Assembly: GCA_041738235.1 (NCBI GenBank)
Contig: JBGSQF010000013.1
Span: forward strand, 129,583-193,582
Direction of reading: 5' to 3'
DNA length: 64,000 bases
Source: Minisyncoccia bacterium
Lineage (GTDB): Bacteria > Patescibacteriota > Minisyncoccia > Moranbacterales > GCA-2747515
Shown: positions 28,529 through 46,282 of the stretch, piece after piece
Layout: every line of letters begins with the position of its first letter
How positions within the stretch are numbered: position 1 is the stretch's first letter
Made by a program: the position numbers and the translations under genes
The notes under the pieces: generated by a model
The model's input: the letters and a program-made list of their open reading frames with translations, nothing else
What the model was told of the DNA's origin: nothing
The model's database searches: none

Positions 28529-29665
28529 TCACTGTTTTTTCACTGTTAGGCTTTTAGTTTCTTTGTCTATTTTTTTCGTGGTGTCTAATTCTTTTTTTAG
28601 CGAGAAGGGGAGTTCACCAGAAACTTTTTTAAGGGCTACACCATCGATCTTGATCACTCGATCAAACAATCCTTTTGGCTCAAGTAAACGACGAACAGAA
28701 GCGATATCGTACGTATACGTTGTGCGTACAGCTCGTTCAATAATCTTTGTTTCACCAAATATTCGTTCTATGCCTTCTTGATTCATACAGTCAGTTATAA
28801 CACCTTGTAACTCTCCGAGGCGTCTTCGATCCGTTGTAGCACGCTCTTTTATTTCCAGATATTCGGCGATCGCCTTCTGGACATCTTCAGTTTCAAGTTT
28901 GCGTTCATCCTTAAATTTATGTCGCCACATTGGGCAGATCTTTTGGAACCCACAGTAGTCACAAAGAGGGGAGACACGCGGATCAAATTTCTGTGCTTCG
29001 ATATCGTGTATTACTTCCAGAAATTTATCATCTAGTTCTTTTAAGTCTTCTTTGGTTCTTAAGGAAGTAAGTTTGACGCCGTGTCGAAGAAAATAAAGGC
29101 TTACAGAAATGTTTTGGAGATCATTCTCCTCTTTTGGATAGCGTTTAAGAAAGGCTCTCATATAGACCGAAAGTTGTATATTATCATCTACGTCTTTTTG
29201 AGAAGGCATCTTCCTTCCAGTTTTGTAGTCCACAATCTCATAGCCCGCATCTGTTTTGTCAATACGGTCGATGATACCAGATATAATATGGACCTCCTTT
29301 GACCTTGGGTCCTCTAGTTCTATAGCAAATCGAGTCTCGAGTCCCACAATGATGATCGAGGCGGGGTCATTGTTCTTGTAATACCTTTGAATGATCTCGA
29401 CCCCCTGAGTGAATGCTGTGCGCTCATCAACTTCTTCGATAAAAAGGGGAGCAATCTCATTGAATTTTTTTGCGAAGAAGTCAAGTGTCTGCTCAAGCGT
29501 TGGTTGGGAAAATCCCGGAGCGTGAACATATTCTAGTACACTATGAAGCAATGTCCCAAAAGCGGCTTCGCGGGATTTTGGTTCCTTGAGCTTATCAATT
29601 TCTTTGTATTTATATTTGAGCGGACAATTCTTGTACGACTCGAAGGATGAGTAGGAAAGACGCAT
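28529..29665 (-). CDS. PD-(D/E)XK superfamily nuclease, Cas4/RecB-like, with a C-terminal Cys cluster.
   Basis: The D...E.K core is IDRIDK...YEIVDYKTG, and it has a QxxxY-like segment. The C-terminal CDYCGFQKICP resembles the Cas4/AddB iron-sulfur cysteine cluster. Neither flank carries a cas gene or a helicase. Confidence 0.7.
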   Translation of the reverse strand: MRLSYSSFESYKNCPLKYKYKEIDKLKEPKSREAAFGTLLHSVLEYVHAPGFSQPTLEQTLDFFAKKFNEIAPLFIEEVDERTAFTQGVEIIQRYYKNNDPASIIIVGLETRFAIELEDPRSKEVHIISGIIDRIDKTDAGYEIVDYKTGRKMPSQKDVDDNIQLSVYMRAFLKRYPKEENDLQNISVSLYFLRHGVKLTSLRTKEDLKELDDKFLEVIHDIEAQKFDPRVSPLCDYCGFQKICPMWRHKFKDERKLETEDVQKAIAEYLEIKERATTDRRRLGELQGVITDCMNQEGIERIFGETKIIERAVRTTYTYDIASVRRLLEPKGLFDRVIKIDGVALKKVSGELPFSLKKELDTTKKIDKETKSLTVKKQ

Positions 29666-29761
29666 ACAAAAAATTATAGGTTATGTTTTGCTGGACTTTA
29701 AGAAGGAGTTACTCTGTATACGGTAGCATTTCTTTTATTAGAAGCAACTTTTTTGAAATAT

Positions 29762-29796
29762 ATAATGTCGCACAATGTATATTTTACGACATTATA
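29762..29796. promoter_or_regulatory. Perfect 9-bp inverted repeat (ATAATGTCG-N17-CGACATTAT) in the promoter region of the PD-(D/E)XK nuclease gene.
   Basis: I read it directly from the sequence at 29762..29770 and 29788..29796, about 100 bp upstream of the nuclease start codon in an AT-rich region. Confidence 0.45.
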
Positions 29797-29816
29797 GAAT
29801 GACCTGTGCTCATATT

Positions 29817-30269
29817 TCAATGATTGTCTGAGTCTACCCATGCCTTATCAACAATGGCAAGCGTTTTAAAAAATGCAAGATAGACCACTAACATCCCTAT
29901 GCTGAACAGAGCAAAAAGTATATTGATCTCCAGAGGCTGATTTTCGGATGCAAAAATCAGTTCAATGGCTGGCGCAATAATGGATATCTCTACGATGTAT
30001 TTTACGCTAATATGATGGTAGCGCATGTAGTATAAAAGCATCCTATAGGACTTCACAAAAACGATTGTAAGCGCTATCGTGTGGAGCACCTTTTCAGCTG
30101 TGAGATTTGGAAAATTAACATAGAGCTTATAAAACTCCAGCAAAGAAAAGAAAATAAGCACAAATATGGTTGCGAGTATGATGACCGACATGAGACTATC
30201 AGTATACCCAACTATTTTTGATATGCTGCCCTTTTTCATGGAGATATTTTTATTCTTAGAATAAGGCAT
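29817..30269 (-). CDS. PsiE-like (phosphate-starvation-inducible) membrane protein.
   Basis: A 150-aa protein with four transmembrane helices. The topology is PsiE-like. Sequence resemblance is modest. Confidence 0.45.
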   Translation of the reverse strand: MPYSKNKNISMKKGSISKIVGYTDSLMSVIILATIFVLIFFSLLEFYKLYVNFPNLTAEKVLHTIALTIVFVKSYRMLLYYMRYHHISVKYIVEISIIAPAIELIFASENQPLEINILFALFSIGMLVVYLAFFKTLAIVDKAWVDSDNH

Positions 30270-30347
30270 TTGAACGTCTTTTACAATGGATTAGGAGGGA
30301 TAGGGGGCTCAAAAAAGCTTATGCTCTCCCCTGCCCCCAAGAAAAAA

Positions 30348-30752
30348 TTATTTTATCCCGTTCTTTTTAAAGCATGCTGTATATTTTTTATCTTCTTCCA
30401 TAATGTGCACTACAAGCCAATCGTTCATAAATTCAAGTAGGTCATACTCAAAAAGCTCCTGTCCCTCATTGAATCGGCTTTCCAAGAGTTTTATTTGCTT
30501 TTTAAATGTGGCATGACCTCTTTTGTGTTCTTCAGTGTGCTCATAATGAAAATCATCGAAATATCTCTCCTCAAAAGCGAAGTGCTGTTCCGCATATTCT
30601 GACAATCCTTTGAGTATCTTTCGTATAGTTTGTTTGTTGTCTGGCTTTAAGAGTGAATGGGAAAGCCTATTAAGGATCTCCACAAATCTTTTGTGCTGTT
30701 TGTCTATTACTGTGAGTCCAGTGCTATATTCTTCTTTCCAAAGTATTGCCAT
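30348..30752 (-). CDS. Hemerythrin-like (bacteriohemerythrin) protein.
   Basis: It contains WKEEYSTGLTVIDKQHK...H...E, the H/E iron-ligand pattern. The start is trimmed to MAILW. Confidence 0.8.
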   Translation of the reverse strand: MAILWKEEYSTGLTVIDKQHKRFVEILNRLSHSLLKPDNKQTIRKILKGLSEYAEQHFAFEERYFDDFHYEHTEEHKRGHATFKKQIKLLESRFNEGQELFEYDLLEFMNDWLVVHIMEEDKKYTACFKKNGIK

Positions 30753-31134
30753 AAGGCTCGGGTATATAAGAATAGACCTATTTTTCCTCCTTTTTAAAAC
30801 CATAGCATATTTTTTCTATTTATGCTAAGCTCATTCATAGAAGACCTTCAGAATAAGGCACTGAATACGGGCGCGAAAGTGCTCATCATGGAACCCACCT
30901 GAGATCTCAGGGAAAATATATTTTTTCCGATGTCTATTTTTACGGGATCCATACGTGCCTTTGCATTGAGGGTCTTTTTGGTTTTTTTGCCCTTTAATAG
31001 CTTTGAGACAAAATTTAAAGACGCATACCACCTCAAGTCCTCCTGGACTCTCGGTATTTATGCGCCTCTCGGTTTTAGAAGGAGTGGTCACTTCCTCAAG
31101 GTGGGGTCGATCTCCCACTTGTTTTACGCATTTA

Positions 31135-31156
31135 CTCGACTGCAATCGAGTTTTTT
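31135..31156 (+). terminator. Weak plus-strand hairpin plus U-tract inside a 560-bp noncoding region.
   Basis: The hairpin CTCGActgcaaTCGAG is followed by TTTTTT. No annotated plus-strand gene lies upstream of it. Confidence 0.35.
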
Positions 31157-31364
31157 AGCAGCTACAAGTGTGCTTGTCAGGCAATGAGACGCCTACCTTT
31201 CTGGGGGGTGTAATACCCTCGAGTGAATATTTTTCCTTCTCTCAGCCGAATTTTCAATTTTAGGATAGATTGAAGTTTTTGTCAATAGCAGAATATTTCC
31301 AAAAGAAGCACAAAAAGGGCTTTGATTGTTTTATTATAAGCGTCTTCCCCACCCTACCAATTTT

Positions 31365-32573
31365 CTAAAATGTGCACCAGATGTCATTTTTGGCTTTTTT
31401 TTCAGATTTTACTGCTTGTGCTACCGCTCTGGCTGCACAGGTATCAAATGGGTCTGGAATGATATTATTTGGCCCAGGTTTTTTTACACAAGCGGCGAGT
31501 GCGTGAGCAGCACGTAAAAACATGGCATCGGTGAATTGTGCGATTCCCCCATCCAGAGCACCTCTAAAAAGCCCCGGAAATGCGAGTACGTTATTTACCT
31601 GGTTGGGAAAGTCGCTTCGTCCTGTTGCCACAATGCTTGCCCCAGCTTCGAGAGCTTCTTGTGGCATGATCTCCGGATCGGGATTGGCAAGTGCAAATAT
31701 TATAGGATTTGGATGCATAAGTCGCACAAGTTCCTTTGTGAGCACACCTCCTTTACTTACCCCTATGAAGACATCAGCGTCCCGTATGCTTGTACTGAGT
31801 CCACCTGTAATACACCGAGGATCATCTATATCAATCTGGCAAGAGATATTTGTCAACATGGCAAGTTTTTCTTTTTCACTCTCCATTTGGGTGCGCCCTG
31901 TATAGAGAGCGCCTTTGCTATCTGACACGACCACATTTCGAAAACCTTCCATGAGCAAAAGCTTGACGATCGAAACACCGGCAGCGCCAGCACCATTTAC
32001 AATCACCTTGGCCTCTTTTTTATCTATTCCTCGGATCCTGAGAGCGTTGAGAAGTCCAGCCAACACAACAATGGCCGTCCCATGTTGATCGTCATGCATA
32101 ACTGGGATAGGGAGAAGTTTACGAAGCCGCTCTTCCACCTCAAAACATCTTGGCGCAGAAATATCTTCCAAGTTGATACCTCCAAATGTAGGCGCGATAG
32201 CTTTTATAGCTGCTACTATCTCATCTACATTTTGTGTATCTAAGACTATGGGCATTGCATCAACATTCGCAAATCGTTTAAAGAGAGCTGCCTTTCCCTC
32301 CATAACCGGAAGCGCTGGAAGTGCTCCCAAATTTCCCAGACCCAAAACAGCAGAACCGTCTGAAATGACCGCTATGGTATTTCGCTTAGAGGTTAGTTCC
32401 CGAGAGCGCTTCGGGTCGTTCGCAATAACATGACACACCTCTGCCACACCCGGAGTATAGACTAGAGAAAGATCCTCGCGATCCTCAATGGCCACTTTTC
32501 CTGTGATCTCGATCTTTCCTTTATGTTTTTTGTGCAACAAAACGGAACGTTCTCCCAGTGATGATCTTTTCAT
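31365..32573 (-). CDS. NAD(P)-dependent malic enzyme (small ~400-aa type, no PTA domain).
   Basis: It contains LSLVYTPGVA and the Rossmann motif VNGAGAAG. It aligns along its full length with malic enzymes. Confidence 0.9.
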   Translation of the reverse strand: MKRSSLGERSVLLHKKHKGKIEITGKVAIEDREDLSLVYTPGVAEVCHVIANDPKRSRELTSKRNTIAVISDGSAVLGLGNLGALPALPVMEGKAALFKRFANVDAMPIVLDTQNVDEIVAAIKAIAPTFGGINLEDISAPRCFEVEERLRKLLPIPVMHDDQHGTAIVVLAGLLNALRIRGIDKKEAKVIVNGAGAAGVSIVKLLLMEGFRNVVVSDSKGALYTGRTQMESEKEKLAMLTNISCQIDIDDPRCITGGLSTSIRDADVFIGVSKGGVLTKELVRLMHPNPIIFALANPDPEIMPQEALEAGASIVATGRSDFPNQVNNVLAFPGLFRGALDGGIAQFTDAMFLRAAHALAACVKKPGPNNIIPDPFDTCAARAVAQAVKSEKKAKNDIWCTF

Positions 32574-32582
32574 ATCTTATTG

Positions 32583-32972
32583 CTATTCGGCGTGATGGTG
32601 TTCCTTTTCGTACTCATCAGCTTCTGCCTTGTTATGATGAACCGTTCCATCTGGATGTTCAGCTGGGGCGTAGACCGTATAAAGTTTCATAGGCTTTTCT
32701 CCAGAATTGATCACATTATGTTGTGACCCTGCAGGAACGATGATTGCTGATCCATCCATAAGGGAAAATTCTTCGTTACCAATGATTGCCTTCCCCTCCC
32801 CTTCTTCTACGCGAATGAATTGGTCATGTGTGTCATGTGTTTCCAAGCCGATCTCTTCACCAGATTGTAGCGTCATAAGAACGAGTTGCATGTGTTTGGC
32901 CGTAAACAAAACCCTGCGAAAGTCATCATTACTCAGTGTTGCTTGTTCAAGTGATACGTGAAATCCTTGCAT
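32583..32972 (-). CDS. Cupin-domain protein.
   Basis: A 129-aa protein with cupin motifs (G..H.H...E...G; PAGSQH) and a His-rich tail. Confidence 0.7.
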   Translation of the reverse strand: MQGFHVSLEQATLSNDDFRRVLFTAKHMQLVLMTLQSGEEIGLETHDTHDQFIRVEEGEGKAIIGNEEFSLMDGSAIIVPAGSQHNVINSGEKPMKLYTVYAPAEHPDGTVHHNKAEADEYEKEHHHAE

Positions 32973-33178
32973 ATTTTTTCTTTAAAAAATTAGAAATCCC
33001 AAATACACTTACTAATACGCCAAACAGGGTCTAAAATTTCAGCTTATAGGGGCACCTTGATCCGCTGATGCCCGCTCTGCGCATCTTTCCAAAACAATAC
33101 GTGTTTCCCTATCATCTTTACAAGAAGTATCTATAGACCCAAAGGAGTGTGCGATCCATGACATGCTTCTAAGAAACC

Positions 33179-34633
33179 CTAGGAAATAAGTAAAATTGCT
33201 ATATGTATACGCTTAAGTGTGGCTTCTTTGCCGATCACCCAGGCGATGTCTTGAGGTGGAGGCGACTGTTTGGCGCCAGTCAGAGACACGCGAAGTGGCC
33301 AGAGAAACTCTCCTCGCCGTTCACCCGCTTCAGCAAGAAATATTTCCCCTAATTTTTCACGATCCCAATTTTCTTTGGGAATATTTTGTATCATTGCATG
33401 AGCTTTCTCAAGCATTTCTCTGAGTATTTTATCGTCCATATCTTTCCACCGAAGCAATGTACTATTATACTCTGGGTCGACAAAAAGGAATGGATTTTTT
33501 TCTCCTATTTGGTCAAGTCGATCAAGTCGATCTTGCTCTATAGCAAGTACCCGCTTCCAGTACTCCTCCCCCACCTCAGGATATTTTGACATCCACGGTT
33601 GAACTTTCTTATATAATTCATCGATCGGCATCCTTTTAATATATTCCCCATTCATCCAATCTAATCGCTTGATATCAAATATTGCTCCAGCCTTGTTAAC
33701 CTGTTCCAAAGAAAAATTCTTTACCAATTCCTCCAGTGAGAATATCTCTTTTTCCGACCCTTTGCCTGGGTTCCAGCCAAGTAATGCCACGAAATTGAGA
33801 ATAGCCTCTTTGAGGTAGCCTTTTTGCACATAATCCTCTACAGCAACATCACCCTGACGTTTAGAAAGCTTGCTTCGGTCAGGATTGAGAAGAAGTGGAA
33901 GATGAGCGAATACCGGTACCTCCCATCCGAATGCACGGTACAACAAAATGTGCTTGGGTGTACTGGGAAGCCACTCTTCACCACGGATCACGTGTGAGAT
34001 CTGCATAACATGATCGTCTATAACGCTTGCCAGATGGTAGGTGGGAAATCCGTCTGACTTAAGGATCACTTGATCATCAAGAAGCTCTGTTCGAAATCCT
34101 ACCTTTCCGCGAATGGCATCCGTGTACTCAACTTGAACGATCTCTTCATTGGGAATCAAGAATCGAATAACGTGTGCTTCACCGGTAACTATTTTTTGTT
34201 TGACCTCCTGTGGAGAAAGATGAAGGCAACGCCTATCATATTTTGGAGCCATTTTTTTTGCTTGCTGTTCTTTCCGCATCGAATCAAGCTCTTCAGGGGA
34301 ACAGAAACAGGGGTAAGCTTTTTTCTCGCTCACTAATTGCTCGGCATATTTTTTGTATATCGAAAGATGTTGTGATTGAAAGATGATCTCGGGATTATCC
34401 CAGGTAAGTCCGGCCCATTTAAGGGATTCCTGCAGTTTTTCTTCTGCTCCTGCAACATAGCGGCTTCGGTCGGTATCCTCGATACGCAAATAAAACCCTC
34501 CATCGTGATGACGTGCAAATAAGAAGCTATAGAGAGCTGTGCGTAGACCACCAATGTGCAGATACCCCGTTGGGGATGGTGCAAATCGCGTACGAATAGA
34601 CGTATGGCTCTTTGATGTCGTAGTTGCTGTCAT
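33179..34633 (-). CDS. gltX: Glutamyl-tRNA synthetase.
   Basis: It has an HIGH-like motif (PTGYLHIGG) and a KMSKS-like motif (KLSKR). It is 484 aa. Confidence 0.9.
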   Translation of the reverse strand: MTATTTSKSHTSIRTRFAPSPTGYLHIGGLRTALYSFLFARHHDGGFYLRIEDTDRSRYVAGAEEKLQESLKWAGLTWDNPEIIFQSQHLSIYKKYAEQLVSEKKAYPCFCSPEELDSMRKEQQAKKMAPKYDRRCLHLSPQEVKQKIVTGEAHVIRFLIPNEEIVQVEYTDAIRGKVGFRTELLDDQVILKSDGFPTYHLASVIDDHVMQISHVIRGEEWLPSTPKHILLYRAFGWEVPVFAHLPLLLNPDRSKLSKRQGDVAVEDYVQKGYLKEAILNFVALLGWNPGKGSEKEIFSLEELVKNFSLEQVNKAGAIFDIKRLDWMNGEYIKRMPIDELYKKVQPWMSKYPEVGEEYWKRVLAIEQDRLDRLDQIGEKNPFLFVDPEYNSTLLRWKDMDDKILREMLEKAHAMIQNIPKENWDREKLGEIFLAEAGERRGEFLWPLRVSLTGAKQSPPPQDIAWVIGKEATLKRIHIAILLIS

Positions 34634-34723
34634 TGCAGTAGAGTAAAATGTGTTTATTCTGTAAATTTAGATTATCACGTCACAACTGGAACTGCAATAT
34701 TTTCCTACAAACAAGGTATATTA

Positions 34724-35473
34724 CTATTCTTCCTTTTTAAGGATATATTCAAAAATGAGCAATGTTGGGAAAACGATAACAGCGCGGAAAATACGCAGTA
34801 CACGACTTGGTTGTCGTATCAAACGAAAAAGCCACTCAAAGCCCAACCGTTGCATCCAACCAGGGGCACGGGAAACTTTTCCGGTCATAAAGTCAAAAGC
34901 ACCTCCTACACCCATCATAATAGCGGGAATTTTTTTCTCTTGTAACTCTCTTAAAAGAAGCTCTTGTTGAGGCGCCCCGAGAGAAGCAAGGATCACTTGA
35001 GCCGTTGAGATCTCTTTGATCATTGTAGAGGATGCCCATTGTTTTGATCCCGAATTTCTGAGTGGAGGGATCAGATCAAACCCGAAGAGCTGTATATTGG
35101 GATATTTTTTTTGAATACGTTCTTTTATTTCCAGAAGCGTACTAAGTCCATGCCTGTGATTGATAACACATACGGTCCAACGATCTCTATGTGCCATTGC
35201 CAAAAGGTCTGAAACCAAATCTACACCAGTGATCCGATCTGGCGCATGACTTCCTCGGATCCAGTAGGCCAACGCGATCCCGTATCCATCACGCACACAT
35301 ATATCAGCGTGACAGAGCGCATCGGAAAATTCAAGATCTCGACGTGCTCTCAAAAGAAATTCCGGATTGATCGTTGCGATGCGAAGAGGTTTTTTGAGTT
35401 GTATGTACTCCCCTATCTGGTGAAGGAGCTCTCGTTTCGAAATGTCGTGTATGGGAACGTTAAATATCTTCAT
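34724..35473 (-). CDS. WecB/TagA/CpsF-family glycosyltransferase (GT26).
   Basis: It contains GVDLV...GFEWLFRLIRQPSRVLR. It is 249 aa. Confidence 0.85.
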   Translation of the reverse strand: MKIFNVPIHDISKRELLHQIGEYIQLKKPLRIATINPEFLLRARRDLEFSDALCHADICVRDGYGIALAYWIRGSHAPDRITGVDLVSDLLAMAHRDRWTVCVINHRHGLSTLLEIKERIQKKYPNIQLFGFDLIPPLRNSGSKQWASSTMIKEISTAQVILASLGAPQQELLLRELQEKKIPAIMMGVGGAFDFMTGKVSRAPGWMQRLGFEWLFRLIRQPSRVLRIFRAVIVFPTLLIFEYILKKEE

Positions 35474-35622
35474 ATTCCCTATTCTACTCTAGGTAGCGAT
35501 ATATTGACAAATCGTAGGTAACATGCTTAGATGTACAATCCTCTGGAAACTCTGTCTCAATGATGGGGACGAAGTGCGATCCGTGAGGTCAGCCAGGCGC
35601 CCAACATAGGGAGGCGCCATAC

Positions 35623-35862
35623 ATGGGGCAACATGCCCCAAGGAGAAAGACCGTGTCCTACCTAGTACTAAGTCGCCGAGCTGGAGAAAAAATCCTAATT
35701 GGCGATAACATGGTGATCACCATCGTGGAGCTCGGCGGAGGCCAGGTCAAGGTTGGTGTGAAGGCTCCGCCCGAGGTTCCGGTTGACAGGGAAGAGGTTC
35801 GGAAACGCAAGGAGGCCGAAAAGGACTATCGGAGGCGGAAAAAGGATCGCAACCGCCGTTAG
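35623..35862 (+). CDS. csrA: Carbon storage regulator CsrA-family RNA-binding protein with a basic C-terminal tail.
   Basis: The motif LVLSRRAGEKILIGDNMVITIVELGGGQVKVGVKAPPEVPVDREEV aligns with CsrA, including the VxREE region. The locus is about 58% GC against about 42% for the window. An alternative start is GTG 35653, which lies 7 nt after an AAGGAG Shine-Dalgarno. Confidence 0.75.
   Translation: MGQHAPRRKTVSYLVLSRRAGEKILIGDNMVITIVELGGGQVKVGVKAPPEVPVDREEVRKRKEAEKDYRRRKKDRNRR
35625..35645 (+). promoter_or_regulatory. Leader hairpin GGGGCAacaTGCCCC followed by an AAGGAG Shine-Dalgarno, upstream of the csrA GTG start.
   Basis: This is a perfect 6-bp stem with a 3-nt loop, read from the sequence. 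GGA-containing sites flank it (aGGGAGG, aaGGAGaa). Confidence 0.4.
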
Positions 35863-35957
35863 ACGGCGACAGCCAGAGGCCAGGGACGGCCCAACAAGAA
35901 ACATCGCAGGAAGCATCCGCGGTGTTTTTTTAATGGGGATTTTTTTGGACAGATTAC

Positions 35958-36500
35958 TTATCTCCCCAGCCCGATCCGTTCGATAGCAACGTACTTTCGT
36001 TTACCTTCAATGATGGTGCTTTCAAATATCAAAACCTCCGTGGCAGGAACAGAAAAGTGTGCGGCAATATCGATCACAGGTTTTTGTGGGAGTGCTTTCC
36101 ATTGTCCTCGACGTACACGTCCTAGGGTGATGTGTGGGTGAAACGATCGGCGGTCCACTACAAAATCACTCAGAGACCTTGCAATACGATTATAAAGATC
36201 TTTTAACTCGTCATTCCCCTCCCCTGTCAGCTCAATGCGGTCAGGATTGTCTATTGGCGTTATCGCAATTTGAGAAACATCCACATCAAAAGCCATCACT
36301 TCTTGACAAGCAAGGGAGATCTTTTCCACGATCTCCGGGAGATCCATGTCATCTACCCAACCCAAGAATAACACCGTGATGTGACGATTTTCCGAGACCG
36401 TCCAAATGACCGGAAGTTCCAAGAAAGGTTCGATCTTTCGGTCGATCCGCTTACCGATGTCCTGAGGCACCGAAATACCAATAAAAAGTCTTCGTTTCAT
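35958..36500 (-). CDS. thpR: 2'-5' RNA ligase / 2H phosphoesterase (LigT/ThpR family).
   Basis: It has two HxT/S motifs (HITVLF and HITLGR). It is about 180 aa after trimming the start to MKRRLFIG. Confidence 0.8.
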   Translation of the reverse strand: MKRRLFIGISVPQDIGKRIDRKIEPFLELPVIWTVSENRHITVLFLGWVDDMDLPEIVEKISLACQEVMAFDVDVSQIAITPIDNPDRIELTGEGNDELKDLYNRIARSLSDFVVDRRSFHPHITLGRVRRGQWKALPQKPVIDIAAHFSVPATEVLIFESTIIEGKRKYVAIERIGLGR

Positions 36501-36618
36501 ATACCTATTGAAACACGAGGTTCGCTTTTTGTACAGGATAGAAGTTTGACTTTTTTTACTGTACCCAGTAAAATTATCTTTCTTCTTTAACAATCCAAAA
36601 ACCCCCAGGAGGTGCAAG

Positions 36619-37248
36619 ATGGACAGGAAAGAGCCTTTCCTGCTATCACTCGCCCTCCGTGGGCGAAAAGGAAACGAAAAGGTGCAGGATGCATTCTTTT
36701 TCATGATGGAGGCCCATCAGGGACAGACCAGGGATACGGGTGAACCGTACTTGGTACACCCCCTCGGCGCAGCTAGGATAGTGTGCTGTGAATTGGGACT
36801 TACGGATGATGTGGAACTCCTTCAGGCGTTGCTGTTGCACGACATCCTGGAGGACACGCGGAAAACTGAAAGGGAACTCTTGGAAAGGTTTGGGGAGGTG
36901 GTGACCGGCTTAGTGGTAATTGTCACAAAGCCTCCAAAACCGCTTGATGAGAAACCACCAGTATTTCAAGCAGTGGAACTTTCCCGCAAGGACCACGCAC
37001 GCAGGATATATGTGCAGGGGATTGCCGACTACCCCGATTGGCGAGCAATACTGGTGAAGCTCGCAGACGCGCTTCACAACCTCCGAACGCTTGACCCCAG
37101 GAAGCCGGAAAAGAGGAAGAGAGTCAAGGAAAAGGTCCTCTTTTACTATCTCTGGTTGGTCGACGTGCTTATCAAGAAAGCACCTGACCAAAGAGAACGT
37201 GCTAAATATCTCCGCAGAGAGATCCTTTTGGCAATCCAATCCATCTAG
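36619..37248 (+). CDS. RelA/SpoT-type HD-domain protein (small alarmone hydrolase, (p)ppGpp hydrolase-like).
   Basis: It contains AHQGQTRDTGEPYLVHPL...LLHDILEDT...ILVKLADALHNLRTL, the canonical SpoT HD hydrolase motifs. At 209 aa it has no synthetase domain. Confidence 0.75.
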   Translation: MDRKEPFLLSLALRGRKGNEKVQDAFFFMMEAHQGQTRDTGEPYLVHPLGAARIVCCELGLTDDVELLQALLLHDILEDTRKTERELLERFGEVVTGLVVIVTKPPKPLDEKPPVFQAVELSRKDHARRIYVQGIADYPDWRAILVKLADALHNLRTLDPRKPEKRKRVKEKVLFYYLWLVDVLIKKAPDQRERAKYLRREILLAIQSI

Positions 37249-37329
37249 AACCCCCGGGACGCAGTAGCGCTCGGGGGTTCAACACATAGACCTTTGCGTT
37301 CGAGCGCCTTCTTGCTACACTAACGATAT

Positions 37330-39318
37330 ATGAAACAAGAAAAAACATGCCTCCTCTCTGTGATCCCCCTGGTACATATCGCTCCCTCTCGTGGACATAT
37401 TTTTTCCTATACTTTTTCTTCCCCGATCCCCATCGGTACATTAGTAGAGATCCCATTAGGAAAAACTCGCATAGTATTGGGCATTGTAGTTACCTCGAAG
37501 ATCACAACTATCTCCCAAAAAGGACTGAAGTCTATCAAAAAAATAGTCTCCCCTTCTCTTCTTGCCGAAAAACATATTGCTTTTGCCGAATATATCGCTC
37601 GGGAATATTTTGGATCGGTCGGAACGATCCTTGATCTTTTTCGTCCTCCCAAGATCAAGAAGGTCAAGTCTCAAAAGTCACTCAAGAATGAGTCTATTGA
37701 GAGCATACAACTTACCCCAAAACAAAAAAATGCTGTAAAGAAAATAGCACAAACAAAAAATCCCATTCTTCTCACAGGACCCCCTGCATCAGGAAAGACG
37801 GAGGTGCTGATCGAGGTGGTCAAGAGGGTTCTTCAGGAAGGTAAACAGGTTCTATTTCTGCTTCCTGAGATCACGCTTACACCGCATTCGGTCGATCGAA
37901 TGACCAGGAGACTGGGAAGTGGTTGCGTCTCTGTTTTTCATAGCGCACTCACCAAGGGTCAACGTGCATCCGTATGGCACGGTATTGCCTCAGGAAGATC
38001 GCAAGTCGTGATCGGTTCACGGTCCGCGCTTTTCCTTCCCTTCCAGAATTTGGGGCTTGTGATCGTTGATGAGGAAAATGACGATTCTTATAAACAAACA
38101 CTGAAATCTCCTCGATATGATACTCGGATCGTAGCGGAAAAACTCGCCAAGATCCACCAAGCGAGAACAATATTTTGTAGTTCTACACCCAGAAGTGAAA
38201 CACTTTTTCGAGTTGATCATAAGACCCTGGATATCGTCGATCTCCCAATATTAGAGATGAAAAAAAGTCTCTCTCCTCCTCAAATACAGATCGTAGATAT
38301 GCGCCTTGCTCACTGGAAGAACAAACAAAAGAAAATGTCCCCACCTATTTTTTCAGAAGATCTGATCGAACGCATTCGAGAAACACTCAAAAGAAAGGAA
38401 CAGATCCTGCTTTTGGTGAGCCGCCAAGGAATGAATGCATTCTCTTTATGTACAGTGTGTAAAAATATTCTTCGTTGCCCAAAATGTGACCGCGCCCTCG
38501 TAGGACAACACTCCGGTCACTACTTGTGCCTTGGAGGGCACTTCCGAACACAAGCATTTCCCAAATGTCCAACTTGCGGAGGATTGCAGTTTACAAGTCA
38601 TGGTGTTGGAACCCAAAAGGTAGAAGAGGAACTTGTGCGTCTTTTTCCTTATTCACGGATCGCTCGATTTGATTCTCAAGTGGCCCAAAAACGGTCTCTT
38701 CGTGAGTCGCTATTCTCCGATATGTCAGATAGAAAGATCGATATCCTCATCGGAACACAGATGATAGCTAAGGGCTGGGACATCTCCCACCTTTCACTGA
38801 TCGGGATCATAGACTCTGATTCTTTTTTCTCCATTCCCGACTACTCTACTGATGCTCGAATAGCACAGCTCTTGTTCCAGGCGCGAGGACGACTCAACCG
38901 CGTGGGAAGTATTTCTTCCGGAGCGCTTCTTATACAAACATACCATTCCGAAAGACCAATTTTTTCCTTCCTTGAAAAGAACAATTACACTGGATTTATA
39001 ACAGAGGAAATGGAAACACGACAAGCGTTAAAATACCCCCCCTATTGTCGCTTGCTTCGATTAGTGGGTAAGAGTACCAATGATATCAAATTACGTGCCC
39101 AGGCACTTGATCTCTATAAAGAGATGGCAAGCATCAAAGATCCCGATCTTGTCATAGCACGCCCCACAAAATCTCTCAAACGTCAAAAAATGGGGATCTT
39201 TTCCCGTCAGATAGTGATCAAGCATTTTTCCCAACAAATTTCGCCCCCCATTCGAAAAATACTTGAAAATATCCCTAAGAACTGGTACATTGATAATGAT
39301 GCTGTGTCCATTGCTTAA
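37330..39318 (+). CDS. priA: Primosomal protein N' (PriA helicase).
   Basis: Walker A is GPPASGKT. It has a Cys-rich zinc-binding insertion (CTVCKNILRCPKCD...CPTCGG) and a helicase C domain. Confidence 0.9.
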   Translation: MKQEKTCLLSVIPLVHIAPSRGHIFSYTFSSPIPIGTLVEIPLGKTRIVLGIVVTSKITTISQKGLKSIKKIVSPSLLAEKHIAFAEYIAREYFGSVGTILDLFRPPKIKKVKSQKSLKNESIESIQLTPKQKNAVKKIAQTKNPILLTGPPASGKTEVLIEVVKRVLQEGKQVLFLLPEITLTPHSVDRMTRRLGSGCVSVFHSALTKGQRASVWHGIASGRSQVVIGSRSALFLPFQNLGLVIVDEENDDSYKQTLKSPRYDTRIVAEKLAKIHQARTIFCSSTPRSETLFRVDHKTLDIVDLPILEMKKSLSPPQIQIVDMRLAHWKNKQKKMSPPIFSEDLIERIRETLKRKEQILLLVSRQGMNAFSLCTVCKNILRCPKCDRALVGQHSGHYLCLGGHFRTQAFPKCPTCGGLQFTSHGVGTQKVEEELVRLFPYSRIARFDSQVAQKRSLRESLFSDMSDRKIDILIGTQMIAKGWDISHLSLIGIIDSDSFFSIPDYSTDARIAQLLFQARGRLNRVGSISSGALLIQTYHSERPIFSFLEKNNYTGFITEEMETRQALKYPPYCRLLRLVGKSTNDIKLRAQALDLYKEMASIKDPDLVIARPTKSLKRQKMGIFSRQIVIKHFSQQISPPIRKILENIPKNWYIDNDAVSIA

Positions 39319-39378
39319 TCGCGGTTGTTTATTGCATCCAAATAGGTATGTCAGAGCTGAGAAAGCTTTTTAGTCTAT

Positions 39379-39813
39379 ATGCTTACACTCGTTACACATC
39401 CAAATGAAATCCTTCGAACCAAAGGGGAAAAGATCCTCGATCCGCTTGATCCAAAGATCCAGGCGCTCATCCCTGAAATGATCGGAACGATGCACGCTGA
39501 GAAGGGTGTAGGACTTGCTGCACAACAGATCGGTCAAGCTCTTCAGATCGCTGTCATTGAAGTTGAACATATTGTGTATATTCTCATTAATCCTAAGATC
39601 ACAGCACTATCTCGAGAAACAGAACCAATGGAAGAAGGATGTCTCAGTGTTCCTGGAAAATTTTTTCCAATAAAACGATCCACATCCGTTCAGGTACGTT
39701 ATACCAATGAAAAAGGAGAGCGAAAAAAACTTCGCGCTCGGGGACTTTTGGCCCAAGCTATCCAACATGAAGTGGATCATCTCAATGGCATTATTATTCT
39801 TGATCGACTCTAA
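39379..39813 (+). CDS. def: Peptide deformylase.
   Basis: It has the three PDF motifs: GVGLAAQQIG, EGCLSVPG and QHEVDHLNG. Confidence 0.9.
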   Translation: MLTLVTHPNEILRTKGEKILDPLDPKIQALIPEMIGTMHAEKGVGLAAQQIGQALQIAVIEVEHIVYILINPKITALSRETEPMEEGCLSVPGKFFPIKRSTSVQVRYTNEKGERKKLRARGLLAQAIQHEVDHLNGIIILDRL

Positions 39814-39837
39814 AATACACCTAAAACAATAAGGGTC

Positions 39838-40827
39838 ATGTCTTTTTTTCACAAATTCTTCTCAAAACCAAAAGATCCAAAAAAAATACATATTGTCTTT
39901 TTTGGTACCCCAGAATTTGCAGCGATCGTTCTTGAAGCACTTTTGAAAGAATCTTACACTATTCGGGCAGTTGTCACACAACCGGATAAGGCCGCTGGGA
40001 GAAAAAGGATCGTTGTTCCAAGTCCTGTCAAGGAGGTTGCTCTGAGAAGTTCGATCCCAGTTTTACAACCCACGAAGATAGGAAAAGACTTCTTACAGGT
40101 GCTTAGCAAATATCAACCGGAGCTCATCCTTGTTGCAGCCTATGGAAAGATATTTCCTGCCCCCCTCCTCGACTTCCCCAAACACGGATGTGTCAATGTT
40201 CATGCATCCCTGCTTCCTTTGTACCGGGGAGCCTCACCCATCCAGAATGCTATTCTCAATGGTGAAAAGATGACAGGTGTTTCTTTAATGCAGTTAAACA
40301 AGGGACTTGATACTGGACCAATCTATGCCAAACAGATCATCTCATTAGAAGATAATGAACTTTTCCCGGAGGTGCTCGACCGACTTGCCCATACAGCTGC
40401 AACACTAACTATAAACATGCTGCCGACAATACTTAAGGGCGACCTTATGCCAATCCCTCAAAATGATGAGGAAGCGACAGTTTGCCAGCTTATTGAGAAA
40501 GAGGATGGTCGTATATACTGGAACGAAACGGCACGAGAGGTCTTCAATAAATATAGAGCCTTCTTTCCTTGGCCGGGGATATATACACACTGGAAAAGAG
40601 GTGCTAATATTCTTCGTATTAAACTTATTCGTATTCAGTTGCGTGAAGATGTGCAAGTAAAAGAGCACGCAATGGGGCAGGTGTTTCTGCAAGAATCTAA
40701 TGTTTTTGTAAGCACATCCCTTGGCTGTATCGAACTTCTCGAGGTACAACTAGAGGGTAAGAGCGTTTTGAATGTTCATGATTTTATTCGTGGGTCTGAT
40801 GAATTTATCGGATCCGTGCTACAATAG
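39838..40827 (+). CDS. fmt: Methionyl-tRNA formyltransferase.
   Basis: It begins IVFFGTPEFA. It contains HASLLPLYRG and a C-terminal Fmt domain. It lies immediately downstream of def. Confidence 0.9.
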   Translation: MSFFHKFFSKPKDPKKIHIVFFGTPEFAAIVLEALLKESYTIRAVVTQPDKAAGRKRIVVPSPVKEVALRSSIPVLQPTKIGKDFLQVLSKYQPELILVAAYGKIFPAPLLDFPKHGCVNVHASLLPLYRGASPIQNAILNGEKMTGVSLMQLNKGLDTGPIYAKQIISLEDNELFPEVLDRLAHTAATLTINMLPTILKGDLMPIPQNDEEATVCQLIEKEDGRIYWNETAREVFNKYRAFFPWPGIYTHWKRGANILRIKLIRIQLREDVQVKEHAMGQVFLQESNVFVSTSLGCIELLEVQLEGKSVLNVHDFIRGSDEFIGSVLQ

Positions 40828-40900
40828 AGACACAAACATACATTGGAAAATGAATCTTATTTGAAGATCTTGCTATTTTTCCTAAAAACAAAACTTTTCT

Positions 40901-41698
40901 ATGAAAGATTCTATCTTCCCTAAAGAGGTCTTAGTTGTTGTCGTTGGCGTCTTACTGATTGTCGGTGTTATGCTTTTCACGCTCCTTCGCTCTGATACCA
41001 AGATACAGAATGTACTTAAAACATCTTCCGAAGACTCACAAACAACGCAATTCTTTGATCAAATAGATTATATACAGGCCAATAAACTGATAACAGAACT
41101 GCACAACGAAGGATTGGTCATTCTTGATGTTCGAGATAGGACGTACTTTGATCTGAGCCATATTCCAGGTTCCATCTCAGTAACTCCCACTACTGCCGCA
41201 GAAGCGTTTACGTCTTATAGATCAAACCCACAAAAGATCGTGTTAGTTGACTCAGAAGGACAAACACCTCAGCTCAAGGCAACCGTTGAGGATCTTCGTG
41301 AGAAGAACATAAAGAATGTCCGAATACTTTCTGGAGGATACTCAGCATGGGATACGCGCGCTTACCCGACCGTTTCCTGGGGAGATCCAGAGTCTCCCAC
41401 AGATCTTGCAAAAGTTCGATCCATCTCCCCAGAGAATGTTCAGAAAGTAAAAAATGACAAAGAGGTCATATTCTTAGATGTTCGGACAACAGAAGACTAC
41501 GCTAAAGACCACAGAGAAGGATCTATTAACATTCCTTTTGACGCATTAGAGTCTTCGAGCGATAAGATACCAAAAATGCAAATGTTGATCGTTTACGGCA
41601 CAACACCCATTGATAGTTTCCGTGCAGGTGTGCGTCTTTTTGATATGGGCTATAATCTTGCCTATACAGTTGTTGGTGGCTATATTGATATCAAATAG
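40901..41698 (+). CDS. Membrane-anchored tandem rhodanese-domain protein.
   Basis: It has an N-terminal transmembrane helix and two rhodanese-like modules (VILDVRD...; IFLDVRTTEDY...). Confidence 0.65.
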   Translation: MKDSIFPKEVLVVVVGVLLIVGVMLFTLLRSDTKIQNVLKTSSEDSQTTQFFDQIDYIQANKLITELHNEGLVILDVRDRTYFDLSHIPGSISVTPTTAAEAFTSYRSNPQKIVLVDSEGQTPQLKATVEDLREKNIKNVRILSGGYSAWDTRAYPTVSWGDPESPTDLAKVRSISPENVQKVKNDKEVIFLDVRTTEDYAKDHREGSINIPFDALESSSDKIPKMQMLIVYGTTPIDSFRAGVRLFDMGYNLAYTVVGGYIDIK

Positions 41699-41710
41699 AT
41701 TTATAAACAT

Positions 41711-42553
41711 CTATAGAAAAGGATTTGGTTTAAGTCCAATATTTTTCCAGAATTCTCTGGCAATTTTTTTTGTTATGTCCCCTACTACTCCATTACCGAT
41801 CTTTTGTTCATCCACACTCACCACAGGAAGGATGTTTTTGTAGCTCCCTGTGAGAAACATCTCATCAGCGTCAAGCATTTCAAAAGCTAACACATCACGT
41901 TCTTCCACAACGAGTCCCATTTCTCGCGCCAGGGATAGTGCGTATTTTCTTGTTATTCCACCAAGCACACTCGTTTTGGGACTTATGACCTTTCCCTTCG
42001 ATACGATACATACGTTGGCCGTAGAGGCCTCTAAAAGATTTCCGTTAGCTATGTATACGATCTCCACAGCTCCTTTCGCTTTCTTCTCAGCCAGGTAGGA
42101 GATCGGAAATACATAATCCACCGTTTTAGCTTCTGGGAACTTTCTAATATAGGGCTTAGTGATCACGCCCACACCTTTTTCATACCATTCGGATGAGATT
42201 TCCTTCCAGATATCCATCAAAATATAGAAAGTTGGTTGTTTAAAGTTTGGCTCAAAAGCATTTTCACTCACTCCTCCAGTCAACACCGTCCGAACCGAGG
42301 CGTCTTGCAAATGATTCTTCTGCAAAAGATACTTGATAATTTCTGTCCATTGTTCAAAAGAGATGGGTAGACCAAGTGAGAGCGTATCGGCTGACCGAAC
42401 TAATCTTTCCCAATGCTCACGAGCGAGGAAGGGATCCTCATTAAATATCGGCATAACATCAAATACTGCATATCCTCGTAGCACCCCGATATCTCGAGGA
42501 TTAATCCGCATATCCTCTTCAACAACTACGTTCCCGTTTATATATCCAAACAT
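41711..42553 (-). CDS. Class IV aminotransferase (branched-chain / D-amino-acid aminotransferase family).
   Basis: A 280-aa protein with the fold-type IV PLP pattern (EERDVL...TGS..), aligning with IlvE/PabC-like enzymes. Confidence 0.75.
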   Translation of the reverse strand: MFGYINGNVVVEEDMRINPRDIGVLRGYAVFDVMPIFNEDPFLAREHWERLVRSADTLSLGLPISFEQWTEIIKYLLQKNHLQDASVRTVLTGGVSENAFEPNFKQPTFYILMDIWKEISSEWYEKGVGVITKPYIRKFPEAKTVDYVFPISYLAEKKAKGAVEIVYIANGNLLEASTANVCIVSKGKVISPKTSVLGGITRKYALSLAREMGLVVEERDVLAFEMLDADEMFLTGSYKNILPVVSVDEQKIGNGVVGDITKKIAREFWKNIGLKPNPFL

Positions 42554-42581
42554 ATGTTTCTATGACAAGCCTTTAAATAGA

Positions 42582-44408
42582 TTATCGTTTAAGAACATTC
42601 AGAAATGCCTCGGGCGGAATATTTACACGTCCAGATGATTTCATACGTTGCTTGCCTTTTTTCTGCTTTTCTAAGAGTTTTTTCTTTCGTGAAAAATCTC
42701 CTCCATAGAGTTTTGCAATAACGTCCTTTCGGTAGGCACTTATGCTCGATCGAGCGATGATCTTCCCTCCAATGGCCGCTTGAAGCGCCACAACGAAGTT
42801 TTGTCTTGGGATCACCTCTTTTAATTTATCTACGATCTTTTTACCCTCAGAAAACGCTTGGCTTTTTGGAACGATCCGACTGAATGCCTCCACTACATCC
42901 CCAGCAACCAGAATGTCAATCTTTACCAGATCACTTGTTCGATACCCAATAAGCTCATAATTCATTGAAGCAAAACCCGAAGAGATGCTCTTGAGATCAT
43001 CATGAAAATTGACGATCACCTCCATTAAGGGCGCCTCAAATTCCAGTACCGCACGGTCAGCATCCAGGTACTGTGTATTTTTATAGGTTGAACGAAGCGA
43101 ACTAAGCAACTTCATTATGCCTCCCATGTATTCTGCCGGGGTGATCACCTCTAACTTTACAAAGGGCTCTGCAACGCTTTCAAGGGTTGAGGGATCAGGA
43201 TATTCAACAGGAGAATAGATGTGTTTCTTTTCTTTATTTTTTAATATGATCTCATAGACCACGCTTGGCGTTGTGATAACTGGGGAAAATTCAAATTCCC
43301 GCTCCAATCGGGCTTGGATGATCTCTAAATGGAGCATGCCGAGAAATCCACAGCGAAACCCACGCCCCAAGGCAAGATTACTTTCAGGCTCAAAAACAAA
43401 CGAAGCATCATTAAGGCGTAGCTTTTCCAAGGCATCTCGCATACCATTATAATCCTCTCCTTCTCTTGGATAGAAGCTGGCATACATTACCGGTCTCACT
43501 TCACGATATCCAGGAAGAGGTTTGATGGATATAGACTCCGCTTCTGGTATATCCACTCTGACCCTTTCTGTTTTTGACCTTGTGCTATAGACCGTATCTC
43601 CCACACGGCAAACGCTCACGCTCTTGAGTCCTGTGGCGATATAACCCACCTCACCTGCATGAAGTTTTCCTGTTTTGACAAGCGCTGGGAAAAAATAACC
43701 CACCTCAATGGCAATACCTTGTGTTTGTGTGGCAAAGTATCGAAGTATCTCATCTCGACCCACTTCACCATCAACTACACGAACATATGCCACAACACCC
43801 CTATAATCATCATATACGGAATCGAAGATCAGTGCACGGAGTGGCGCTCGAGGATCACCCTTAGGTGGAGAGATACGCGTGACAATAGTATCCAGTATTT
43901 CTTTTACTCCCAATCCAGTTTTTCCAGAAGCACAAAGAATATCTTCTTCTTTGCATCCTAAAATATGGATGATCTCTTTTTTTGTCCGTTCCACCTCAGC
44001 ATTTGGCAGATCGATCTTATTGACTACAGGTATGATCTCCAAACCCTGTTCAATGGCACTATAAAGGTTTGCCAATGTCTGCGCCTGAACACCTTTGGTT
44101 GAATCGACCAACAATACAGCTCCCTCTACAGCAGCAAGAGAACGAGACACTTCATATTGAAAATCCACATGGCCCGGAGTGTCTATAAGGTTGAGCACAT
44201 AATCCTTCCCCTGAAATACATAATTCATTCGTACAGGCTGGAGCTTAATAGTAATCCCTCGTTCACGCTCAAGATCCATCTGATCAAGAAGTTGTTCTTT
44301 CATCTTCCGATCTTCTACTGTATGTGTAACCTCAAGCATTCGATCTGCCAATGTGGATTTCCCATGATCGATATGTGCGATAATACAAAAATTTCGGATA
44401 TTCTCCAT
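42582..44408 (-). CDS. lepA: Elongation factor 4.
   Basis: It begins IRNFCIIAHIDHGKSTLADR, continues with a G-domain, and has the LepA C-terminal domain. It is 608 aa. Confidence 0.95.
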   Translation of the reverse strand: MENIRNFCIIAHIDHGKSTLADRMLEVTHTVEDRKMKEQLLDQMDLERERGITIKLQPVRMNYVFQGKDYVLNLIDTPGHVDFQYEVSRSLAAVEGAVLLVDSTKGVQAQTLANLYSAIEQGLEIIPVVNKIDLPNAEVERTKKEIIHILGCKEEDILCASGKTGLGVKEILDTIVTRISPPKGDPRAPLRALIFDSVYDDYRGVVAYVRVVDGEVGRDEILRYFATQTQGIAIEVGYFFPALVKTGKLHAGEVGYIATGLKSVSVCRVGDTVYSTRSKTERVRVDIPEAESISIKPLPGYREVRPVMYASFYPREGEDYNGMRDALEKLRLNDASFVFEPESNLALGRGFRCGFLGMLHLEIIQARLEREFEFSPVITTPSVVYEIILKNKEKKHIYSPVEYPDPSTLESVAEPFVKLEVITPAEYMGGIMKLLSSLRSTYKNTQYLDADRAVLEFEAPLMEVIVNFHDDLKSISSGFASMNYELIGYRTSDLVKIDILVAGDVVEAFSRIVPKSQAFSEGKKIVDKLKEVIPRQNFVVALQAAIGGKIIARSSISAYRKDVIAKLYGGDFSRKKKLLEKQKKGKQRMKSSGRVNIPPEAFLNVLKR

Positions 44409-45931: not shown

Positions 45932-46282
45932 ATGAAAAAAATTGAGATGTGTTACGACCCCGCGTGCGCGGAGGACCCTCCGCACGCACTCCTTTTGGAC
46001 GAGCAGGGGAGCAAGGTATGCCCTATCCCGCTCTACTCCAAGGACCACGCCAGGGAGGCGATCCTTGAGTGCGGTCGCTACTGGTCGAGCACAGAACGCT
46101 CGCGTCTCTTGGAAGCAGTGGAAAGTTTTCCACTCCCCAACAAGATCCCTGCGGTATTTGAAGGGGCGACCCTCTGCGAGTTGGTTGCCGAATATGAGGA
46201 ACATCTCAGGCGGAGGTCTAAACCAAGCAGTCTCGTTATCCTAAGGTTCTACTACCTGCCTCAGTCAGGATTCATTGCCTGA
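45932..46282 (+). CDS. Hypothetical GC-rich small protein.
   Basis: A 116-aa ORF of about 55% GC in a 42% GC background. The GC richness creates overlapping antisense ORFs. I recognise no domain. Confidence 0.4.
   Translation: MKKIEMCYDPACAEDPPHALLLDEQGSKVCPIPLYSKDHAREAILECGRYWSSTERSRLLEAVESFPLPNKIPAVFEGATLCELVAEYEEHLRRRSKPSSLVILRFYYLPQSGFIA

Follow-up and report, generated by a model that had tools for sequence, protein, structure and literature searches.

The 64,000-nucleotide (nt) stretch of contig JBGSQF010000013.1 (assembly GCA_041738235.1, Minisyncoccia bacterium) analyzed here, referred to below as the window, encodes a small protein of the CsrA family. Its gene, csrA (open reading frame, ORF, 35623..35862 on the + strand), lies on the opposite strand between wecG and ligT, where it interrupts the conserved ligT-wecG-gltX gene block. 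Because csrA is absent from this site in related genomes and has a foreign nucleotide composition, we regard it as probably an intact, horizontally acquired, accessory gene in the genome of a member of the candidate phyla radiation (CPR, or Patescibacteria). A first-pass annotation of the same DNA had described several features of the locus correctly and had missed this main point.

Family membership and predicted fold

The ORF codes for 79 amino acids (aa) when read from the ATG at 35623 and for 69 aa when read from an in-frame GTG at 35653. The product scores 68.8 bits (E = 3.9e-19) against the Pfam CsrA profile (PF02599), which has a gathering cutoff of 27; the match spans residues 14-62 of the 79-aa form and profile positions 2-50 of 53. 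The “CsrA-like regulator” profile of PHROG (phrog_9500) gives 75.6 bits. A HMMER search of 1.84 billion representative proteins returned 18,917 matches at E <= 1e-3, among which the single-domain relatives share 55-64% identity over the core and none is nearer. The AlphaFold2 model, computed for the monomer only from 56 aligned relatives, has a mean pLDDT of 95.6 and consists of strands followed by a helix at residues 47-68, that is, the β1-β5 plus C-terminal α-helix fold of the family. In a Foldseek comparison with the Protein Data Bank (PDB), all 15 top matches were CsrA, RsmA, or RsmE chains, and the full-length chains gave TM scores (normalized to the target) of 0.79-0.87 with root mean square deviations of 1.2-1.8 Å. 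The RNA-binding residues are present as L4, L6, R8, R9, R46, and E48, corresponding to L2, L4, R6, R7, R44, and E46 of Escherichia coli CsrA; L4, R8, P39, R46, and E48 (L2, R6, P37, R44, and E46 in E. coli) are invariant in the 56 aligned relatives. The first-pass annotation had assigned the core to CsrA and suggested a PF02599 search as a check; the score, far above the cutoff, and the fold match both bear this out.

Among solved structures, the best matches are gammaproteobacterial proteins, namely, CsrA of E. coli (1Y00), RsmA of Yersinia (2BTI) and Pseudomonas aeruginosa (1VPZ), and RsmE of Pseudomonas fluorescens (2JPP), with 45.7-54.3 bits and 43-49% identity. The protein shares with them the five-strand-plus-helix fold (predicted, in this case), the equivalents of L2, L4, R6, R7, R44, and E46, a similar length (69 aa versus 61 aa in gammaproteobacterial CsrA), and the lack of a FliW partner, none being encoded within the window. 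Unlike gammaproteobacterial CsrA, it has two additional N-terminal residues (MSY-), an Asp in place of the His before the key arginine (VDREE versus VHREE), a net charge of +9 in the C-terminal helix region, and a higher calculated pI (10.3, compared with 8.2 in E. coli). It also differs in scoring below the NCBI equivalog cutoffs (see below), in the absence from the window of any sponge RNA of the CsrB, CsrC, or Rsm type, and in being encoded by a CPR bacterium. Judged by these comparisons, the csrA product is a secure but divergent member of the CsrA family, not certified as equivalent to canonical CsrA.

Most of the best-scoring relatives in the 1.84-billion-protein library (P0002-P0150) carry 2 to 4 CsrA domains per chain. 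Examples include P0002 (170 aa, 2 stretches) and P0012 (282 aa, 4 stretches), and CsrA-like stretches also occur in P0048, a protein of 2,639 aa. CsrA proteins of this tandem, “single-chain dimer” kind seem to be common.

Genomic context and nucleotide composition

The window encodes SHMT, CTP synthase, AspRS, GltX, PriA, Fmt, LepA, LexA, RNase P RNA, and 16S rRNA, and the best matches of GltX (58% identity) come from Moraniibacteriota-type and other Patescibacteria metagenome-assembled genomes; by these markers, therefore, the host is a CPR bacterium, Parcubacteria/Moraniibacteriota-like. The gene order rhodanese-fmt-priA/ligT-wecG-gltX is kept in 14 of 80 related loci fetched around gltX, and in 7 of these 14 the gap between ligT and wecG is only 10-27 nt. 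None of the 80 loci encodes CsrA. In all, csrA is absent from the ligT-wecG site in 15 relatives, including a sister, a 23-kb Logan contig (L093; ERR14790927) that was found through its 71%-identical homolog of the neighboring HD_4 protein.

This sister contig is colinear with positions 28531-44144 of the window, with 74-78% nucleotide identity and 63-91% identity between the neighboring proteins. It has the HD_4 gene, no csrA, and a wecG-ligT spacer of 247 nt, and tblastn finds no csrA coding remnant in it; the only similarity on the 3′ side is 11 nt long. Upstream of csrA, homology to L093 ends at 35619, a few bases before the GC-rich hairpin 35624-35640. An element of ~89 nt (35531-35619) is kept in the spacers of both sisters, whereas distant relatives have almost no spacer there; it has no match in Rfam. 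The csrA-specific DNA amounts to ~310 nt (~35620-35930) and comprises the hairpin, a Shine-Dalgarno sequence, the coding sequence, two small hairpins, and a terminator. The features of the locus are as follows (window coordinates).

35499..35528, strand not assigned: 30-nt segment that is absent from L093 and carries TTGACAA (alignment with L093)
35531..35619, strand not assigned: native wecG-ligT spacer element, forming most of the csrA upstream region (local alignment score of 38 to L093 9123-9205)
35596..35618, + strand: hairpin GGCGCC-CAACAUAGGGA-GGCGCC with GGA in the loop, a candidate CsrA site (GGA-loop scan and fold)
35623..35652, + strand: alternative N-terminal extension from ATG 35623 (79-aa form, used by the NCBI annotation), probably not translated
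35624..35640, + strand: 7-bp hairpin UGGGGCA-aca-UGCCCCA with a 3-nt loop, bounding the insert on the left (minimum free energy, MFE, and centroid folds)
35640..35645, + strand: Shine-Dalgarno sequence AAGGAG, with a 7-nt spacer to GTG 35653 (read from the sequence)
35653..35862, + strand: csrA coding sequence from the favored GTG start, 69 aa, with the stop codon TAG at 35860-35862
35854..35868, + strand: hairpin CGCCGU-UAG-ACGGCG, whose loop contains the stop codon (6-bp hairpin scan and predicted fold)
35878..35891, + strand: hairpin GGCC-AGGGAC-GGCC in the 3′ untranslated region, with GGA in the loop (GGA-loop scan and predicted fold)
35896..35930, + strand: intrinsic terminator of csrA, in which a U-run follows a long stem, convergent with the 3′ end of ligT (MFE structure of 35540-35935)

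The composition of csrA sets it apart from its surroundings. Its third-position GC content is 0.62, compared with 0.426 ± 0.064 for 51 genes of the window (z = +3.1), and the window has only three GC islands in protein-coding DNA, one of which is the csrA region, with a peak GC of 0.58 versus a window mean of 0.43. Two further genes stand out in third-position GC, HD_4 (0.59) and an orphan ORF of 116 aa at 45932-46282 (0.66). A chimeric assembly was considered as the source of the GC island and rejected: synteny continues on both sides, and independent Logan assemblies (SRR28170473 and SRR28170474) are 100% identical to the window over both junctions.

The 30-nt segment absent from L093 contains a -35-like hexamer in both directions, as TTGACAA reads TTGACA on the + strand, towards csrA, and TTGTCA on the - strand, towards wecG. 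A promoter scan detects a promoter-like site for wecG, TTGTCA-18-TAGAAT, on the - strand at 35510..35481; a + strand promoter for csrA could lie in the same segment (35499-35528).

Gain, loss, or remnant of a mobile element

Several observations weigh against the reading of csrA as an intact, horizontally acquired accessory gene. The NCBIfam equivalog cutoffs are not reached (63.6 versus 73 bits for NF002469 and 60.4 versus 70.1 bits for TIGR00202), and no ortholog above ~60% core identity was detected in the protein, genome contig, and viral contig databases searched. Gain in the csrA lineage and loss in the sister are inseparable by the present comparison, which has no outgroup within the clade. 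Finally, the HD_4 gene combines high third-position GC with presence in both genomes; since this shared gene has stayed GC-rich in L093, a high GC content does not by itself mark the transfer as recent. Searches for close orthologs returned little: a word-index protein search matched only the protein itself (a cluster of one member), and the best hit of a metagenome scan with WecG had 33% identity.

The csrA gene may already have been present in the common ancestor with L093, perhaps acquired together with HD_4, and later deleted in the sister, which would make it an old accessory gene. The two genes flank the same native gene, ligT, and resemble each other in third-position GC (0.62 and 0.59) and in ribosome-site context (CCCCAAGGAG and CCCCAGGAGG); HD_4 is found in both genomes, with a third-position GC of 0.54 versus 0.356 in L093, and the 247-nt spacer of L093 is far longer than the 10-27 nt seen in distant relatives. 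However, L093 shows no coding remnant of csrA and no more than the 11 nt of 3′ similarity, and gain and loss require one event each, with no outgroup within the clade to tell them apart. We consider ancestral presence possible but less likely than not. It is improbable, in turn, that csrA is the leftover of a phage or another mobile element that it once served, with little or no present role in the host. Such an origin would agree with the strong phrog_9500 match, the foreign composition, the documented traffic of csrA alleles on plasmids and phages (PMC7366521), and the relative P0133, which starts with the same MSYLVLSRR and adjoins a Minor_tail_Z gene. Yet no integrase, transposase, phage, or conjugation gene is found near csrA, where the neighbors are gltX, wecG, ligT, HD_4, and priA; phage, plasmid, and viral collections contain no close match (at best 48-56% identity over half of the protein); and the ORF, ribosome site, and terminator are all intact.

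Mobile csrA alleles are found even in hosts that have no csrA on the chromosome (PMC7366521). The gene described here resembles CsrA proteins of mobile elements, such as Legionella CsrT on integrative and conjugative elements, the RsmM-type proteins of Pseudomonas phages and plasmids, and PHROG 9500, in its strong phrog_9500 match and foreign composition. It differs from them in standing alone among housekeeping genes, with no genes of a mobile element nearby, and its identity to Pseudomonas phage CsrA proteins is only 48% over half the length. A search for target-site duplications or flanking repeats revealed only chance-level 10-nt repeats, e.g., TCAATGATGG at 35557 and 36007, where about two such pairs are expected by a rough estimate. 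P0133 itself is a 67-aa CsrA protein encoded directly upstream of the Minor_tail_Z gene, among small ORFs without assigned function (L081-L083; Logan SRR28702527-9), and is probably the product of a phage-borne csrA.

Start codon and ribosome-binding site

Translation of csrA likely begins at GTG 35653, as the first-pass annotation had proposed. This start is favored because residue 14 of the 79-aa form aligns with residue 2 in most CsrA homologs, because the resulting N terminus, MSYLVLSRR, is identical to the start of P0133, and because AAGGAG is unpaired in the predicted centroid structures. ATG 35623, by comparison, falls within the GC-rich hairpin, in its 5′ arm, 4 nt beyond the end of the L093 homology and so at the junction of native and inserted DNA, and its putative Shine-Dalgarno sequence, GGGAGG at 35608-35613, belongs to the native spacer (L093 reads TTGAGG there).

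An antisense 73-aa ORF (35695..35916, - strand) was rejected as a true gene in view of the strong CsrA match on the + strand. The Logan gene caller had annotated this antisense ORF, not csrA, on an identical contig, which is why the CsrA product is missing from the Logan gene index. The case illustrates how small GC-rich genes can be misannotated.

The basic C-terminal tail

The tail that follows the conserved R-E-E, VRKRKEAEKDYRRRKKDRNRR, contains 13 basic and 4 acidic residues, a net charge of +9 in 21 positions. Among the 125 relatives in the top-150 list with an extractable C-terminal tail, it ranks first both in net charge (+9 versus a mean of 1.3 and a standard deviation of 2.6) and in basic fraction (0.62 versus 0.21 ± 0.11), so its description as an unusual Lys/Arg tail in the first-pass annotation was apt. 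The first half, RKRKEAEK, aligns with the normal C-terminal helix of CsrA and with the “VR.RK.AE” pattern common in the subgroup, D-x-Y-R-R recurs in one relative, and the C terminus is only 6 residues longer than that of E. coli CsrA. In the AlphaFold2 model, the C-terminal helix (residues 47-68) runs on through the entire tail, a prediction that is weakened by the small number of sequences aligned in that part of the alignment. CsrA's C-terminal extension has been described as highly variable (PMC7366521), and helix length is reported not to track function (PMC13443453). Because its first half is ordinary, its excess over E. coli CsrA is only 6 residues, and the extension is known to vary, the tail is best read from its sequence as the extreme of a known continuum and not a new domain.

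In general terms, the tail (REEVRKRKEAEKDYRRRKKDRNRR) is reminiscent of arginine-rich RNA-binding helices and of E/R/K-rich single α-helices: it is likewise rich in Arg and Lys with interspersed Glu and Asp, and it is predicted to be helical. Unlike in those systems, the basic stretch here extends a domain that binds RNA sequence specifically, and there is no sequence homology between them.

Leader, hairpins, and GGA motifs

Most of the csrA leader is native wecG-ligT spacer and not a leader that coevolved with CsrA, since L093 carries an ortholog of 35531-35619. Three of the four leader GGA sites lie in this part, a stretch shared with a genome that has no csrA. Of the hairpin 35596-35618, only the right arm is common to L093, which reads 'CAG--TCCCAATACATTGAGGCGCCA' there.

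The perfect GC-rich hairpin that had been noted immediately before AAGGAG is real. It is one of ~6 distinct perfect 6-bp sites (nine start positions) with at least 5 GC pairs in the window, which has 145 perfect 6-bp hairpins altogether, the GC-rich ones being clustered in the three GC-rich islands. The hairpin, which had been read as guarding the ribosome site, adjoins the Shine-Dalgarno sequence without covering or sequestering it. The layout has no statistical support as a sign of autoregulation. The suggested folding of the leader (111 nt) gives z = -0.82, which is not unusually stable; the GGA count in the leader is 4 versus 2.97 expected (P = 0.32); and the putative transcript has 4 GGA-in-loop hairpins versus 1.84 in shuffled sequences (P = 0.12), so that all three are at chance level. 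The last 136 nt of the transcript, the GC-rich stretch that encodes the tail, contain 3 GGA-loop hairpins versus 0.56 expected, with a nominal P of 0.014 for a segment that was chosen post hoc.

Two further possibilities were discarded. The csrA mRNA (35540-35935) has a fold z score of about -4, but background 396-nt segments, with RNase P excluded, range from +2.3 to -4.0, and the value is largely due to the strong terminator at 35896-35930. With composition controlled for, neither enrichment nor sponge-like clustering of GGA is significant. On the - strand, a further terminator-like site is called at 35921..35905.

Control and possible mode of action

As the first-pass annotation had stated, there are no fliW or flagellar genes nearby: neither FliW (PF02623) nor any flagellar family was detected among the ~60 ORFs scanned in the window. 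To our knowledge, the host group is generally regarded as nonflagellated. The CsrA proteins of Bacillus, Geobacillus, and Campylobacter that are partnered with FliW (5DMB and 1T3O) belong to the same family, have the same fold, and likewise possess a C-terminal region past the core. The similarity to them is much weaker, however, with 36.8 bits for Geobacillus (5DMB_D) and 30.1 bits for Bacillus subtilis (1T3O) versus 54 bits for the E. coli, Yersinia, and Pseudomonas CsrA/RsmA, and, unlike their genomes, the window has no fliW or flagellar genes. By sequence, the csrA product is nearer to the proteobacterial type controlled by small RNAs (sRNAs) than to the FliW-partnered type. Because it resembles sRNA-controlled CsrA/RsmA, the missing FliW is expected rather than strange, and control of this CsrA is most likely not FliW based. 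No known sponge RNA family was found in the window with Rfam models (gathering score or E <= 1), a search whose reach ends at families represented in Rfam, and no intergenic cluster of GGA-loop hairpins is conspicuous in the window beyond the GC-rich coding islands.

Following family knowledge, the protein most likely acts like canonical CsrA/RsmA: a domain-swapped homodimer would bind GGA motifs in or near ribosome-binding sites and thereby repress translation or alter mRNA stability. In the sequence of events that we propose, the ~310-nt segment (~35620-35930) would have been inserted on the opposite strand in the spacer of the ligT-wecG-gltX block, bringing in the GC-rich hairpin, its own AAGGAG, the GTG-initiated 69-aa CsrA, two 3′ hairpins, and a strong terminator. 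The basic tail would probably strengthen RNA binding nonspecifically, through electrostatics, much as an arginine-rich motif does, and would not serve in FliW docking.

Two other proposals bear on how the protein is used. CsrA might repress its own translation through leader GGA sites, one of which overlaps the Shine-Dalgarno sequence, and the GC-rich hairpin would contribute to guarding the ribosome site. E. coli CsrA autoregulates by binding leader GGA sites, including one that overlaps the Shine-Dalgarno sequence. Here, GGA 35610, in the loop of the hairpin 35596-35618, and GGA 35642, in the Shine-Dalgarno sequence, are 32 nt apart, a spacing that a CsrA dimer can bridge, and the left arm and loop GGA of that hairpin are specific to the csrA-bearing genome; the excess of GGA-loop hairpins at the 3′ end of the mRNA, in its post hoc segment, points the same way. 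But every AAGGAG Shine-Dalgarno sequence contains a GGA, the chance-level values given above apply to the leader GGA count, the transcript hairpins, and the leader fold alike, the element with three of the four leader GGA sites is shared with a genome devoid of csrA, the hairpin leaves the Shine-Dalgarno sequence uncovered, and there are no orthologous leaders to examine for covariation. Autoregulation is thus possible, without positive support from the sequence, and we view it as rather doubtful. It is less probable still, indeed hardly likely, that the basic tail makes no RNA contact and is a docking surface for a protein partner or antagonist, comparable to the FliW site in Bacillus. The C-terminal helix or extension is the partner-binding site in FliW-type CsrA (PMC7366521, PMC13443453), and a long exposed helix is predicted here; still, the insertion holds a single gene, with no candidate partner gene adjoining it, the sequence is nearer to sRNA-controlled than to FliW-type CsrA, and a net charge of +9 would be more typical of nucleic acid binding.

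Neighboring genes and other features of the window

The HD_4 gene (36619-37248, + strand) encodes a 209-aa, single-domain protein with an HD domain of the (p)ppGpp hydrolase type, whose distant relatives are named guanosine-3′,5′-bis(diphosphate) 3′-pyrophosphohydrolase. It sits between ligT and priA, which adjoin each other in more distant relatives. Its third-position GC of 0.59 corresponds to z = +2.6, and its homolog in L093 (71% aa identity) is also the most GC-rich gene there. By these features, HD_4, located 1 kb from csrA, is a second foreign gene of the regulator type. The divergent ligT and priA have their start codons within a perfect 10-nt inverted repeat, GTTTCATATA at 36494-36503 and TATATGAAAC at 37327-37336, which so brackets the HD_4 insertion; this may be a coincidence.

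The orphan 116-aa ORF (45932-46282, + strand) exceeds all other genes of the window in third-position GC, and the context of its ribosome site, CCAAGGAGAAGA, resembles that of csrA. Neither Pfam nor PHROG yields a match, its sole database match comes from a Logan assembly of the same organism, and it is probably a third foreign gene. The segment 30800-31195, located mostly in a stretch without an assigned gene (30804-31364), has a fold z score of about -4.0 relative to shuffled sequences and no match in Rfam; in L093, a 95-aa gene is called at the matching place.

Significance for CPR bacteria and the CsrA family

CsrA is among the best-studied posttranscriptional regulators of bacteria and has been reported in most phyla (PMC13443453), whereas its role has hardly been studied in the ultrasmall, symbiotic members of the CPR; the one pertinent statement that we found lists csrA among the highly expressed genes of ultrasmall groundwater prokaryotes (PMC9938205). 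The csrA locus described here does not overturn the current understanding and is an ordinary addition to a well-known family. A bolder interpretation, which we consider a long shot, is that the basic helical tail makes this CsrA a self-sufficient, high-affinity RNA binder that operates without a FliW or sponge antagonist in a minimal CPR cell, as a stripped-down Csr system taken over from another bacterium or from a phage and newly connected to a native promoter region.

Under the favored reading of an acquired accessory gene, the locus would provide a clean natural case of a single-gene regulator dropped into a reduced genome. The pair of sisters with and without csrA could serve to study how a minimal regulatory network incorporates a foreign global regulator, and the extreme basic tail offers a simple, testable variation on the variable C terminus of the family.

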